64,000 nt of DNA from Nanobdellota archaeon (GTDB lineage: Archaea; Nanobdellota; Nanobdellia; Pacearchaeales; GW2011-AR1). The translations under genes and the position numbers were made by a program. The DNA lies in contig JBBSXB010000001.1 in the NCBI GenBank assembly GCA_038046005.1, positions 64,001 to 128,000 of the forward strand, read 5' to 3'. The notes under the pieces are model-generated. The model had not been told where the DNA came from. It saw nothing but the letters and a program-made list of their open reading frames with translations, and did not search any database. Below are positions 11,191 through 55,065 of this stretch, in pieces (position 1 is the first letter of the stretch; each line of letters starts with the position of its first letter).

Positions 11191-11243
11191 AATGAAGTTA
11201 AATACAAAATTTTTAATCAAAGTAAATAAGGAGATAAATTTAA

Positions 11244-11474
11244 ATGACAGCAAGTGATTGGAAAAAAATACTCAAACAATTAAAAAATAAGCCAGCAGTA
11301 ATGGAGAAATTTATTAAGCACTGCAAACCTAAAGAAAGAAAAACGGGTATAGCTTCAAGAAAGTGTGAGAGATGTGGAAGGTTTGGAGCACATATAGGTT
11401 CTTACGGTTTGAATTTGTGCAGACATTGCTTCAGAGAAATTGCTCAAGAAATAGGCTTTACAAAATATTCATAG
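11244..11474 (+). CDS. rps14: 30S ribosomal protein uS14 (zinc type)
   Basis: CERCG...LCRHCFRE. Confidence 0.96.
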   Translation: MTASDWKKILKQLKNKPAVMEKFIKHCKPKERKTGIASRKCERCGRFGAHIGSYGLNLCRHCFREIAQEIGFTKYS

Positions 11475-14138: not shown

Positions 14139-14987
14139 ATGAAAAAAACAGATAAAAAACAAGTATTTGAAGATGTAAAGAAAACTGTAGAGGCCTATGG
14201 GGCATTTTCAGAAGAAGAAGCAATCAAGAGTGCAAAAAATCCAGAGGAGATTACTGTAAAGTTGATTGATGAAGACATCAAGGATAAAAAAGTTGAAGAG
14301 ATAATTGAAGAGACAGAAAAAAAGGTTATTGGAGAAAAGATTAGAGAAGAAATTGCTGGATGGAGACCAAAGACAAAGCTTGGAAGAGAAACAAGAGAGG
14401 GAAAAATAAAAAATATAGACGAAATATTAGAAAATAATAGAAAAATATTGGAAGAAGAAATTGTTGATTATCTGCTTGGTTTAAAGTCCGACTTAATTTC
14501 TATTGGACAATCAAAGGGAAAGTTTGGTGGAGGAAAAAGAAGGGCTTGGAGACAAACACAAAGAAAGACCGAAGAAGGTAATGTGCCAACTTTTTCCACA
14601 ATGGCTGTTGTTGGAGACGAAAATGGGCATGTTGGAGTTGGAATGGGGGAAGCAAAAGAAACTCTTCCTGCAAGAGACAAAGCAATAAGAAAGGCTAAGC
14701 TTAACATCATGAAAGTCGGGAGAGGGTGCTCGGCATTTGACTGTAATTGCAACGAACTCCACACTATTCCATTTAAAGTTGAGGGAAAAACTGGAAGTGT
14801 GAGAATTATTTTAATTCCGGCTCCACAGGGCACTGGTTTAGTTGTGGGAAAAGAAATAAAGAAGGTTTTAAAATTAGCTGGAATTAAAGACGTTTATAGC
14901 AAAACTTTTGGACAAAAAAGAACCTCATTCAATCTTGTCAAAGCGTGTGTTAATGCTCTTGAAAAAACAATGGTGAAGAAAAAATGA
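14139..14987 (+). CDS. rps5: 30S ribosomal protein uS5 with acidic N-terminal extension
   Basis: WRPKTKLGR, VVGDENGHVG, PAPQGTGLV. Confidence 0.97.
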   Translation: MKKTDKKQVFEDVKKTVEAYGAFSEEEAIKSAKNPEEITVKLIDEDIKDKKVEEIIEETEKKVIGEKIREEIAGWRPKTKLGRETREGKIKNIDEILENNRKILEEEIVDYLLGLKSDLISIGQSKGKFGGGKRRAWRQTQRKTEEGNVPTFSTMAVVGDENGHVGVGMGEAKETLPARDKAIRKAKLNIMKVGRGCSAFDCNCNELHTIPFKVEGKTGSVRIILIPAPQGTGLVVGKEIKKVLKLAGIKDVYSKTFGQKRTSFNLVKACVNALEKTMVKKK

Positions 14988-15040
14988 AAGCAAATCAAAG
15001 ATTTTCATTCATTCGAAATTATAGGAGATTATTCAAATGA
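14984..15040 (+). other. intergenic hairpin/mini-ORF element (18 codons, MKANQRFSFIRNYRRLFK)
   Basis: ATGA overlaps with both the rps5 stop and the rpl30 start; similar elements at 11192, 53447 and 54524. Confidence 0.55.
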
Positions 15041-52874: not shown

Positions 52875-53138
52875 ATGAGAAAAAAACCTGTTAAACAAAA
52901 GGGAAAATTAAGCTTTAGTAGGTACTTTCAAGAGCTGAATCCAGGAGATTTTGTTTCAGTTATAAAAGAGCTGTCAGTTCCATCAACCTTCCCAAAAAGA
53001 CTTCAAGGCAGAACTGGAGTTGTTGAAGGAAAAAGGGGAAGAACCTATGTTGTAAATATAAAAGACCAGGAAAAAAGTAAGAAATTTTTGATAGAAGCCA
53101 TACATTTAAAAAAAATAAAAGCTATGGAGAAAGCATGA
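52875..53138 (+). CDS. rpl21e: 50S ribosomal protein eL21
   Basis: FQELNPGDFV, QGRTGVV, HLKK. Confidence 0.93.
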   Translation: MRKKPVKQKGKLSFSRYFQELNPGDFVSVIKELSVPSTFPKRLQGRTGVVEGKRGRTYVVNIKDQEKSKKFLIEAIHLKKIKAMEKA

Positions 53139-53440
53139 TAAAAAACACCGAAGCCATAAGTATGGCAGAATCAATAGAATATTTAAAAGAAGCAAAAGAT
53201 GAAGGAAAAGAAACAATTGCTTTTATAAAAAAGTTCAACAAACTTTCACCAAAAGATGGAAAAGAAATGAGGGCAAAATTGGAGAAAGCAGATATTATAA
53301 AACTTGATGAAAAAAGCATAAGCAAGATAATTGATGTTTTACCAGAAAATGCTGAAGAGATAAACAAAATTTTTGTAGGAGTAAGTTTAGATGAAGAAGA
53401 GAGCAAAAAAATAGTAGAAATTGTAAAGGGGATTAAATGA
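53135..53440 (+). CDS. rpoF: RNA polymerase subunit Rpo4 (F)
   Basis: KIIDVLPENAEE; position between rpl21e and DUF655. Confidence 0.88.
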   Translation: MIKNTEAISMAESIEYLKEAKDEGKETIAFIKKFNKLSPKDGKEMRAKLEKADIIKLDEKSISKIIDVLPENAEEINKIFVGVSLDEEESKKIVEIVKGIK

Positions 53441-53446
53441 CACCAC

Positions 53447-53503
53447 ATGAAACAACATCAAAGATTTTCATTCACCAAGATAAAAGCGAGAGGATTAATT
53501 TAA
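53447..53503 (+). other. intergenic hairpin/mini-ORF element (18 codons, MKQHQRFSFTKIKARGLI)
   Basis: ATGAAA-CAAC-ATC-AAA-GAT-TTTCAT hairpin; its TAA abuts the DUF655 ATG. Confidence 0.5.
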
Positions 53504-54037
53504 ATGAAAGAGGAATATGCAATAATACTAGAATTTTTACCAAATGGCTATCCTTTAGAGAGAAAAATGATGCCGATAGCACAAGCTATAGGAAAAAGTC
53601 ATTTAACTCTTTTGGAGCTAGTTCCCCGAAGAGGAATTTCTTTGGAAATTGGGGAAGAAGTTTATATTGGTGAAGGTAAAAGACCAAAAGTTTATTATAT
53701 TTTTGGTAGGTTGGACCGGGAAAGACTTACCGAAACTGCAAAATCACAACTACAGGAGTTTATAGAAAAGGTAGTAGCTGAAAAGGAAAAAGATTATGTT
53801 GCGTTTTTCAATAAAGCTGAAGCGATAAATAAAAGAATACACCAGATTGAGTTAATTCCAGGATTGGGAAAAAAACACATGCAAGAAATAATAAAACAAC
53901 GAGAAGAAAAATTATTCGAGTCATTCGAAGATTTGAAAAAAAGAATACCAAATCTTCCAGACCCTAAAAAAGCAATAGAGAAAAGGATTTTTAAAGAGCT
54001 GACAACAATCGAGAGATATAATTTATTTGTAATATAA
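53504..54037 (+). CDS. DUF655 RNA-binding protein
   Basis: KEEYAIILEFLPNG, LTLLELVP, HQIELIPGLGKK. Confidence 0.92.
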   Translation: MKEEYAIILEFLPNGYPLERKMMPIAQAIGKSHLTLLELVPRRGISLEIGEEVYIGEGKRPKVYYIFGRLDRERLTETAKSQLQEFIEKVVAEKEKDYVAFFNKAEAINKRIHQIELIPGLGKKHMQEIIKQREEKLFESFEDLKKRIPNLPDPKKAIEKRIFKELTTIERYNLFVI

Positions 54038-54038
54038 A

Positions 54039-54527
54039 ATGGAAGTAAAAATACAAACACCAAAAGATGAAGGAAGAGTAGTTAGAATTTTGTCAAAAGA
54101 TATAGAAGGAAAAATGAAGATGTATGTGGGGTTGACAAAAATAAAAGGAATATCTTGGAGTTTGTCGAATGCTATTTGTAGAAAACTTGGAATTGATAAA
54201 AATAGAAAGATAGGATCTTTGAGTGATGAAGAGATAAAAAAGGTTTCTGAGTTTGTGAAAAATCCAGATTTACCAAAGCAAATGTTTAACAGACAAAAAG
54301 ATTTTGAAAGCGGAGAAAACAAGCACCTTGTTGGAAGCGATTTTGACCTGAGAAGAGATTTCGATATAAAGAGACTTAAACAAATTAAAAGTTATAGAGG
54401 GGCAAGGCACACAAGCAAACTGCCGGTAAGAGGACAGAGAACCAAAGGCCACTTTAGATCAAACAGAAAAAAAGGTTCTGGAATTAAAAAGAAAGTTACA
54501 GTCGAAACTAAAAAAAATATAAAATGA
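54039..54527 (+). CDS. rps13: 30S ribosomal protein uS13
   Basis: LTKIKGI, SYRGARH, LPVRGQRT. Confidence 0.97.
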   Translation: MEVKIQTPKDEGRVVRILSKDIEGKMKMYVGLTKIKGISWSLSNAICRKLGIDKNRKIGSLSDEEIKKVSEFVKNPDLPKQMFNRQKDFESGENKHLVGSDFDLRRDFDIKRLKQIKSYRGARHTSKLPVRGQRTKGHFRSNRKKGSGIKKKVTVETKKNIK

Positions 54528-54583
54528 AAGCAAATATAAAATTTTCATCCATTAGAAATGAAAAGGGAGAATATTCCAAATGA
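54524..54583 (+). other. intergenic hairpin/mini-ORF element (19 codons, MKANIKFSSIRNEKGEYSK)
   Basis: ATGA overlaps with both the rps13 stop and the rps4 start; shares ATGAAAGCAAAT and ATTTTCAT with the 14984 copy. Confidence 0.55.
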
Positions 54584-55065
54584 AGAGAAAACACAAGACA
54601 TATTCAAGGCCAAAAAGACCTTTTGATAAAGTAAGAATTGAAGAAGAAGGAAAAATAAAAGAAGAATTTGGACTCAAAAATAAAACTGAGATATGGAAGG
54701 CTGAAGCTAGGGTAAAAGATATAAGAGAAAAAGCGAAAAAGCTTATTAAATCATCTCACGAAGATCAAAAAGTACTTTTTGCAAAACTTCAAAAATTGGG
54801 TTTCAAAGTTAGCTCAATTGGTGAGGCATTGTCATTAGACAAAAAAGATTACCTAAATAAAAGACTTCAGACAATTGTTGCAAGAAAAAAAATTGCGCCA
54901 ACAATCAAATCTGCAAGACAATTAATAACACATAGAAAAATATTAGTTGATGAACGAATAGTTGACAGTCCCTCTTATATTGTTCCTATTGATCTTGAAA
55001 ATAAAATATCTATCAGAAAAAATAATAAAGTTAAGGTCGCACAAAAAATCGGAGTAGAAGAATGA
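54580..55065 (+). CDS. rps4: 30S ribosomal protein uS4
   Basis: PKRPF, FGLKNKTEIW, RLQT, ARQLITH. Confidence 0.96.
   Translation: MKRKHKTYSRPKRPFDKVRIEEEGKIKEEFGLKNKTEIWKAEARVKDIREKAKKLIKSSHEDQKVLFAKLQKLGFKVSSIGEALSLDKKDYLNKRLQTIVARKKIAPTIKSARQLITHRKILVDERIVDSPSYIVPIDLENKISIRKNNKVKVAQKIGVEE

Follow-up and report, generated by a model that had tools for sequence, protein, structure and literature searches.

The spacer between the genes for ribosomal proteins S5 and L30 at positions 14984..15036 (forward strand) of the window, by which we mean the whole stretch of 64,000 nucleotides (nt) analyzed here (positions 64,001 to 128,000 of contig JBBSXB010000001.1), is occupied by a 53-nt copy of a short repeat that recurs at other gene junctions of the same genome and in related archaea. 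Judging from the sequences compared below, the repeat is probably (we put the probability at roughly 0.7) a small, family-restricted insertion element that keeps translational coupling by means of a relay mini open reading frame (mini-ORF) and a Shine-Dalgarno hairpin. The source organism is a Pacearchaeales-type DPANN archaeon (Nanobdellota) with a genome of 875 kb that has a G+C content of 33% and is 98% complete. No paper describing this archaeal element was found in the literature searched, most subscription journals being outside that search.

Most copies of the element are 47 to 62 nt long and hold an open frame of 16 to 21 codons that runs up to the next ATG. An imperfect inverted repeat, here called hairpin 1, makes up the first 29 nt and is followed by a tail that varies in sequence and length. 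In most copies, the last third of the element contains a GGAG-type motif, which we take, on general grounds, to be a Shine-Dalgarno motif.

An earlier note on this DNA had pointed to four related spacers that begin at positions 11192, 14984, 53447, and 54524. All four exist as described and are copies of one repeat, two of them canonical, one part-eroded, and one eroded. A degenerate 28-base pattern gave five matches in the window at up to three mismatches, compared with 0.51 expected, and none of 100 shuffles reached five. Four of these matches are the noted sites, and one (at 53068) is spurious. A fifth genomic copy is located on another contig, between two genes without a Pfam family that look, from their N termini, like part of a pilus or secretion cluster. 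The earlier note had spoken of spacers in ribosomal operons, which does not hold as a limit of the family, since the fifth copy lies between two nonribosomal genes. When the genome was searched with an nhmmer profile, the five copies scored 35 to 54 bits and the next match at most 10 bits; the profile was made from the same five copies, so their own scores are given by construction, and the gap to the next match is the informative part.

Conservation of the reading frame

After removal of duplicates, matches containing N, and matches too near a locus end, 135 archaeal matches were kept. In 116 of these, the mini-ORF closes between -1 and +4 nt relative to the beginning of an ORF that is on the same strand and at least 50 amino acids long, and in 107 of the 116 frame-closing copies (107/135 matches) it does so through an ATGA overlap with the downstream start. 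None of the 13 bacterial or spurious control matches has a mini-ORF that closes at an ORF start. The distances between the ATG of the element and the ATG of the gene are 44, 47, 50, 53, 56, 59, 62, 65, 77, 110, and 122 nt and equal 2 modulo 3 in 110 of the 116 copies, indicating that only insertions and deletions of multiples of three have been accepted. Of the 19 misses, most are located before a second tandem copy or before a short L41e-like gene, three are echoes of the palindrome on the reverse strand, and a few (at loci L022, L096, and L105) are true exceptions to the frame rule. The copies at L086, L092, and L118 directly precede a very small gene with many codons for arginine, lysine, and tryptophan, which in our judgment looks like the gene for ribosomal protein L41e.

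The frame is also preserved in orthologous spacers that were sampled independently of the element, namely, those of at least 30 nt at five junctions in 68 family loci anchored on the S4 protein. Here, 15 of the 17 element-bearing spacers are bridged by a single ORF that extends from the upstream stop to the downstream start, and the other two are tandem chains. Bridging was seen in 5 of the 18 spacers without an element match, some of which are visibly eroded copies, and in 1 of 54 spacers at the control junction between S11 and RpoD, where a recognizable bridged copy is never found. Among eroded S13-S4 spacers, those of L174, L176, and L210 keep a bridging frame with an unrelated peptide, and that of L208 does not. 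In L221, whose copy is recognizable, the frame shifts by +1 near its beginning and is restored farther downstream, with the peptide altered and the register at the ATGA kept. To judge from the ladder of lengths, the bridged spacers, and the eroded and shifted copies, selection acts on an open frame in the right register and not on the peptide. Of the options offered in the earlier note, a translational-coupling relay is thus supported by a frame that is kept across length variants and eroded copies. The relay peptide that it proposed stands as a putatively translated relay ORF; as a peptide it does not, since shifted and eroded copies encode a different one.

Distribution, turnover, and spread

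Within the GTDB family of the source genome, the 28-mer core was identified, at up to three mismatches, in 54 of 401 genomes and in 37 of 191 genera (these counts, like those of the public scan below, miss diverged copies, and absence from an incomplete genome is no proof). A reversed pattern that served as a control gave no match in any of the 401 genomes. In an order-level sample, the core was present in 10 of 105 genomes of the family and in none of 45 genomes of eight sister families. A scan of public genomes with a pattern that left the loop free gave at least 124 stretches; among the matches listed, 112 are in archaeal records (Pacearchaeota, Nanoarchaeota, Woesearchaeota, or archaeon) and 12 are in bacterial records, which were taken as chance controls. 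Further copies beyond the window, which the earlier note had left to be searched for, thus exist both in the same genome and across the family. One to eight copies per genome were seen, with at least eight in one relative and five in the genome studied here. Viral carriers were considered and rejected: two matches in viral contigs are both due to chance and have neither tail nor ATGA.

At the S13-S4 junction, the genes overlap by 4 nt in 27 of the 68 loci, are -1 to +5 nt apart in 18, and have spacers of 8 to 32 nt in 7 (some of which resemble remnants of tails) and of 43 to 83 nt in 10; 6 loci were unresolved. About 11 of the 68 loci hold the element at this junction. On a tree constructed from concatenated S13, S4, and S11 sequences (69 rows; quick search), the presence of the element needs at least nine changes at S13-S4 and five at Rpb4-DUF655.

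Presence and absence at orthologous junctions could be compared directly between sister genomes. In the pairs L195/L180 and L217/L204, the two members differ by a clean 56-nt block, and the flanks are otherwise nearly identical. The outgroup is also empty in one of these pairs, so that a gain is favored there. In a further pair, one genome has the element at S13-S4 and the other has it at Rpb4-DUF655. The tail of the gained copy is nearly identical to that of the S4-S11 copy of a close relative, and tandem arrays of two or three units with a spacing of 56 to 62 nt occur in at least nine loci. Tails from different junctions of one genome have an identity of 0.70 (52 pairs), compared with 0.57 ± 0.02 for shuffled labels (0/1,000 as high), and tails that share a junction but come from different genomes have an identity of 0.61 (229 pairs; again, none of 1,000 shuffles as high). 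The latter value, set against the background of 0.57, indicates that some copies were inherited for long periods. The tail comparisons, taken together, indicate that copies are partly inherited in place and are shaped more strongly by within-genome spread or conversion. The filled and empty sites in sister genomes, the tandem arrays, and the likeness of tails within genomes all support the insertion element that the earlier note had listed among its options.

One relative (S4-anchored locus L222) is described as having copies at four consecutive junctions. In this operon, copies are present at Rpb4-DUF655 (as a tandem pair), DUF655-S13, and S4-S11, and the S13-S4 junction is empty.

Position at start codons

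Every copy begins where a gene would have its start codon, which places it either on the stop of the preceding gene, as ATGA, or about 21 nt downstream of a TATA box. In 77 of 129 copies, the element starts at the stop codon of a preceding ORF that is at least 50 amino acids long, in 51 of these as ATGA. Among the other 52 copies, the motif TT[AT]TAAA ends 18 to 28 nt upstream of the element ATG in 15 and exactly 21 nt upstream in 11, compared with 0 of the 77 operon-internal copies, used as controls, at 18 to 28 nt. A looser promoter motif is present in 22 of the 52. Six of the 52 follow another copy, and 24 fit neither test, partly because of short loci.

The takeover of a start position can be followed at the phosphoglycerate mutase gene apgM, which was compared in nine family loci. 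In three empty loci, the family promoter is followed after about 21 to 22 nt by the ATG of the gene, a start that on our reading would be leaderless. In two loci with a canonical copy, the element ATG is found at the same distance of about 21 to 22 nt from the promoter. One locus has a diverged but bridged copy, and three have other or remnant leaders. The promoter-like motif AAATTTTTATAAAG, which ends about 21 nt before ATG starts, is strongly conserved (L256 to L264 upstream of apgM; many loci), and its distance from the ATG implies leaderless transcripts for the first genes of the family.

Downstream genes begin with ATGAAA in 77% and with ATGAAAG in 44% of 115 cases (80% and 42%, respectively, when each gene family is counted once; n = 50). 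The baseline among 873 crude genes of this genome is 20% for ATGAAA and 3.5% for ATGAAAG. Since ATGAAA(G) is also the beginning of the element, the element either prefers such a target or duplicates the target on insertion. The possibility that position 8 of the element is copied from the target gene was rejected, as the base agrees at one apgM copy and not at three others. At the L3-L4 junction, where copies are present in L005, L035, L063, L072, and L112, the L4 genes natively begin with nearly the first 11 to 15 bases of the element (MKAK/MKAN...), and the direct repeat between element start and gene start is therefore 11 to 15 nt long there. This junction may be the birthplace of the element.

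Hairpins and tail

In hairpin 1, nt 1 to 12, with the ATG first, pair with nt 18 to 29 around a variable 5-nt loop, and two mismatch positions are fixed. The hairpin that the earlier note had drawn between ATGAAA and TTTCAT is present; its extent had been underestimated. For the 50-nt class, RNAalifold returned hairpin 1 at -1.18 kcal/mol with zero compensatory pairs, and full-length copies folded no better than their shuffles. Vertically inherited copies can lose hairpin 1 yet keep the bridging ORF.

The flanks of the tail pair as hairpin 2, with the GGAG-type motif in or beside the loop. This structure was named by reading the sequences and was then tested by counts. Two-sided changes were identified in 6 of 7 pairs in the 56-nt class (52 sequences) and in 6 of 8 pairs in the 50-nt class (29 sequences). 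The corresponding covariation scores are 0.104 (versus 0.048 for shuffled sequences) and 0.185 (versus 0.063), and in neither class were any of 500 shuffles as high. Setting base-pair covariation beside frame conservation, as the earlier note had suggested, we found both: hairpin 2 covaries, and the frame is open across length variants.

Starts led by a Shine-Dalgarno motif are exceptional in the source genome, since only about 10% of its 873 crude genes carry GGAG at positions -20 to -4, and the last 8 bases of the tail precede just three genes. Because both GGAG and the end of the tail are rare before the genes of this genome, the tail is not a generic ribosome-binding context.

Some long variants (L215, positions 1246 to 1322; the S13-S4 spacer of L184; L177, positions 1335 to 1488; and L056, L148, L160, L119, and L159) contain an extra G+C-rich hairpin, which is always in frame and is nested within either the hairpin 1 loop or the tail.

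Proposed mechanism

We propose that the element spreads by inserting itself where a start has the context ATGA(AA). Its ATG would take the place of the original start of the gene and would thereby inherit the ribosome supply of that gene, whether this comes through a 4-nt stop/start overlap with the upstream gene or from a leaderless 5' end about 21 nt after the TATA box. A ribosome due to start the gene would start the mini-ORF instead, translate through the element, terminate on the ATG of the gene, and reinitiate there, helped by the GGAG. Insertion would then not sever the gene from translational coupling, and the mini-ORF would be translated. The element could thus be near-neutral selfish DNA, with selection mainly keeping the relay frame open. 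That a bridge would be needed between coupled genes is suggested by the available part of a study in which gaps of about 20 nt almost abolished termination-reinitiation in Haloferax and Escherichia coli (PMC10666635; for the need for a bridge, see also the available part of PMC6728339).

A number of observations weigh against an insertion element with a relay frame. No mobilizing enzyme was found when five element-bearing genomes were searched for TnpA (PF01797) and TnpB (PF07282). The element has no terminal inverted repeats; its 3' end is not the inverse of its 5' end, and the inverted repeat is internal to nt 1 to 29. The stretch shared by both element ends, which ranges from ATGA to about AAATGAAA(G) and is up to about 10 nt long, is indistinguishable from the ends of the element itself. 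That the mini-ORF is translated is deduced from its sequence. The searches were nhmmer and pattern scans, and the gene calls are crude ORF calls. Hairpin 1 is conserved far beyond the needs of a relay and pairs with the AUG of the mini-ORF itself, which points to some further function and might impede initiation; its fold as RNA is weak (-1.1 and -3.5 kcal/mol for two 29-nt pieces). Hairpin 2 was not predicted by RNAalifold for the 50-nt class, its covariation scores remain high when the partners are slid by -1 (0.147 and 0.142), and subfamily structure can inflate such scores. Some copies, e.g., those in L005, L036, and L043, have no GGAG at all, and this assembly lacks the 16S rRNA gene and hence an anti-Shine-Dalgarno sequence with which the complementarity of GGAG could be compared.

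The genes found downstream of the element belong among these points as well. Of 115 downstream proteins, 61 are ribosomal (L14, 13; L23, 11; L4, 6; S4, 5; S14, 5; L18, 4; and others). Phosphoglycerate mutase (apgM) accounts for 11, RpoB for 4, and DUF655 for 3, and the rest are varied or without a Pfam family. The bias toward ribosomal operons may reflect the abundance of overlapped ATGA(AA) starts, easier exchange via conserved flanks, or a function, and the 61 ribosomal proteins together with the 11 cases of apgM fit a regulon as well as they fit a bias toward overlapped conserved operons.

Alternative explanations

The regulon just mentioned leads to the rival that survives best, although we regard it as unlikely. 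On this explanation, the element is a host cis-regulatory leader, in which hairpin 1 would serve as the operator or RNA-binding site of co-regulated ribosomal-protein, RNA-polymerase, and glycolytic genes and the mini-ORF and Shine-Dalgarno hairpin would serve as the expression platform. Hairpin 1 is kept to 0 to 3 mismatches over 37 genera while the tail drifts (in part by construction, since the copies were collected with patterns that fix most arm positions), as might be expected of an operator; vertically inherited copies nevertheless drop it and retain the bridging ORF. The ribosomal proteins, apgM, and the four cases of RpoB downstream would suit co-regulation, but so diverse a set as pilin-like, glycosyltransferase, ERCC4, and ParA-like genes is also found there. 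Many genomes have the element at the same junctions (L14 in 13, L23 in 11, and apgM in 11), and same-junction tails are slightly above background, both of which are consistent with a resident leader. Against this, sister genomes differ in the presence of the element at one junction and carry it at different junctions, tandem arrays exist, and the core is missing, at up to three mismatches, from 347 of the 401 family genomes. The covariation of hairpin 2 would agree with an expression platform, yet Rfam 15 gave no match at the gathering threshold in the window and none at E values of up to 1 around three of the four copies (the L5-S14 copy was compared at the gathering threshold only). A shared regulatory RNA or processing site, another option of the earlier note, thus found no positive support: the element has no Rfam match, decays, turns over, and precedes many unrelated genes.

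Much less probable is a functional micropeptide (MKANIKFSFI...) made in many copies and acting, e.g., on the ribosome. In its favor, the frame is open throughout, most copies resemble one another in their first 10 residues, and about 95% of 110 distinct cores have a Lys or Arg codon at position 6; the conserved residues coincide, however, with the conserved arms of the hairpin, so that nucleotide conservation accounts for them. Most core substitutions are nonsynonymous (A/V/T/G/E at codon 3 and S/P/L/V at codon 8), and the C-terminal half shifts with the register of GGAG (GG, RR, or GE). Furthermore, in-frame nested inserts of 18 to 66 nt are tolerated, and the shifted or eroded copies in L221, L174, L210, and L176 retain an open frame that encodes an unrelated peptide.

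We give marginally less credence still to an internal promoter cassette, in which AAATATAAAA in hairpin 1 would be a TATA box launching a Shine-Dalgarno-led transcript of the next gene. The loop region of the commonest variant resembles the TATA boxes of the family, and its spacing to the tail would place the transcript start just before the GGAG. Nevertheless, nt 13 to 17 are the most variable in the core and often read CAAAG, AGGAA, or GTGAA, none of which is TATA-like. For this reason, a promoter consisting of a transcription factor B recognition element and a TATA box inside hairpin 1 was rejected. Such a cassette would also leave the preserved frame and the ATGA overlaps unexplained, and many copies are already located about 21 nt behind a canonical promoter. 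Finally, chance resemblance among A+T-rich spacers, for which the low G+C content (33%) of the genome and full-length hairpins no stabler than shuffled sequence might speak, is refuted by the five window matches versus 0.51 expected, by the 0 control matches in 401 genomes versus the core in 54, and by the 13 chance or spurious control matches, which lack every other feature of the element.

Comparison with known systems

Returning to the insertion element, we note that its closest parallel may be found in mycobacteria. Mycobacterial interspersed repetitive units (MIRUs) are described, in the available part of PMC12548453, as mobile units that insert at start codons and contain an internal ORF coupled at -4, an arrangement thought to minimize the effect on the target gene. 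According to the available part of PMC3184786, they are 40 to 100 bp long and transcribed in polycistrons, occur as filled and empty sites, have tetranucleotide direct repeats, and contain ORFs whose ends overlap the neighboring genes. As far as these parts go, the element may be regarded, by analogy, as the archaeal counterpart of MIRUs in design. Both are short, dispersed, multicopy repeats that are co-oriented at start codons or operon junctions. In both, the internal ORF is coupled to the downstream gene at -4 and its ends overlap the neighbors, filled and empty sites are found between relatives, tandem arrays occur, and insertion is read as having little effect on expression. Still on these partial descriptions, MIRUs have short direct repeats at both ends, whereas the ATGA-type repeats of the archaeal element are inseparable from its own termini, and MIRUs number about 40 to 50 per genome, in contrast to one to eight copies here. 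The archaeal element belongs to the other domain of life, is A+T-rich, and is presumably unrelated in sequence, MIRUs having been compared by description only. It also differs in that (i) a subset of copies is found at the 5' end of leaderless transcripts, (ii) the length classes are stepped by 3 nt, and (iii) a letter-conserved hairpin 1 is combined with a covarying hairpin 2 that carries the GGAG motif.

In synthetic bicistronic designs, a short leader ORF feeds ribosomes to a coupled gene. In leader mini-cistrons, according to the available part of PMC12548453, a short ORF likewise delivers ribosomes to the coupled gene. Here as there, a short upstream ORF serves solely to bring the ribosome to an overlapping downstream start, and the leader ORF contains, toward its 3' end, the Shine-Dalgarno motif of the downstream gene. 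The archaeal element, however, is a natural, dispersed, and apparently mobile unit and not a fixed leader or an engineered cassette.

Correia elements, enterobacterial repetitive intergenic consensus (ERIC) sequences, bacterial interspersed mosaic elements (BIMEs), and the in-frame Rickettsia palindromic elements are small nonautonomous repeats that are co-transcribed with genes. The available part of PMC3184786 describes MITEs (miniature inverted-repeat transposable elements) and repetitive extragenic palindromic (REP) sequences as small nonautonomous prokaryotic repeats of the same habit. The archaeal element resembles MITE, Correia, ERIC, and REP/BIME repeats in being short, hairpin-forming, patchy between relatives, and tolerated in transcription units, and, like the Rickettsia elements, it survives by keeping a reading frame open. 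Unlike MITE- or REP-type repeats, it is without terminal inverted repeats, no matching insertion sequence was found for it, and it is not located inside genes; instead, it occurs strictly at start codons and in one orientation, with its own start, stop, and Shine-Dalgarno motif. Classification as a MITE was rejected for lack of the terminal inverted repeats. A link to IS200/IS605 was also considered and rejected. PF01797 was identified in two of the five element-bearing genomes and is absent from the genome studied here and from two others, and PF07282 was identified in one of the five and is absent here. Four regions around TnpA genes contained no element-like sequence (best nhmmer E value, 0.4).

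Implications

The MIRU-type design is already known, and what the archaeal family adds to it is the leaderless case, the 3-nt ladder of lengths, and the two-hairpin layout. With more than 100 independent spacers, the family amounts to a natural experiment on translational coupling, in which a gap of 50 to 60 nt is tolerated only when it is spanned by an open frame of the correct register. This pattern agrees with the reporter-gene result, as given in the available part of PMC10666635, that short gaps abolish termination-reinitiation. The MIRU strategy is extended to archaea and to leaderless transcripts, which suggests a general route for selfish DNA into those operons of very small genomes that are most densely packed and most essential. 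In practical terms, the element accounts for odd spacers and unannotated mini-ORFs in the ribosomal operons of DPANN archaea and could be of use as a strain marker or as a compact natural coupling cassette for the design of archaeal expression systems.

A bolder generalization, which we advance tentatively and consider doubtful, is that start-codon relay elements make up a general class of selfish DNA with convergent origins in the streamlined genomes of both prokaryotic domains, the 56-nt family being its minimal archaeal form. The letter-perfect hairpin 1 would then be the recognition site of an insertion machinery that reads ATGA(AA). Leaderless or overlapped starts would be turned into starts led by a Shine-Dalgarno motif and coupled through a mini-ORF, and the initiation of core genes (those for ribosomal proteins, RpoB, and apgM) would thus be rewired.

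Copies and neighboring genes in the window

The genes that flank the four copies in the window were identified by Pfam as those for L5, S14, S5, L30, Rpb4/RpoF, DUF655, S13, and S4. The rest of the window consists of tightly packed genes that overlap or abut, which makes the 50- to 60-nt spacers holding the element conspicuous. All four copies lie on the forward strand. The GGAG or GAGG that the earlier note had placed before each next gene is found 8 to 12 nt upstream of every downstream ATG, and the four mini-ORF peptides read as they were written there; the ATGA overlaps at both ends that it ascribed to two copies are those of S5-L30 and S13-S4.

The canonical S5-L30 copy (54.5 bits) is located between the forward-strand genes for S5 (14139..14987) and L30 (15037..15459). 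Its mini-ORF (14984-15040) has 18 codons; the ATG overlaps the S5 stop as ATGA, and the TGA overlaps the L30 ATG at 15037. Hairpin 1 (14984..15012) contains the start codon of the mini-ORF and pairs nt 1 to 12 with nt 18 to 29 around a 5-nt loop, with two internal mismatches; the 29-mer folded alone gave -3.5 kcal/mol (z score, -2.0). The tail (15013..15036) carries GGAG at 15024-15027. Family-wide, this region makes up hairpin 2, whose loop contains or adjoins the Shine-Dalgarno motif, the covariation coming from the 56- and 50-nt classes and not from the 53-nt copy at S5-L30.

The other canonical copy (54524..54579; 56 nt; 44.6 bits) lies between the genes for S13 (54039..54527) and S4 (54580..55065), both on the forward strand, and carries GGGAG at 54565-54569. 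Its mini-ORF (54524-54583) has 19 codons and an ATGA overlap at each end.

The copy at L5-S14 (11192..11243; 52 nt; 35.1 bits) is eroded, with three mismatches, and is indeed weaker than the others, as had been noted. Its frame is uncoupled from the S14 ATG, and the resulting 21-codon ORF (11192-11257) extends 11 nt into S14. In five other genomes, the same junction holds canonical copies.

The part-eroded copy at Rpb4(RpoF)-DUF655 (53447..53503; 57 nt; 43.0 bits) contains an 18-codon mini-ORF with the same coordinates, the TAA of which immediately precedes the DUF655 ATG at 53504. Among the 68 loci anchored on S4, 8 showed this junction-specific variant. A 78-codon ORF on the same strand (53437-53673) begins at an ATGA overlap with the Rpb4 stop, crosses the element, and continues into DUF655 in a different frame. 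Rather than a gene, it most likely represents a side effect of the erosion at the 5' end of this copy.

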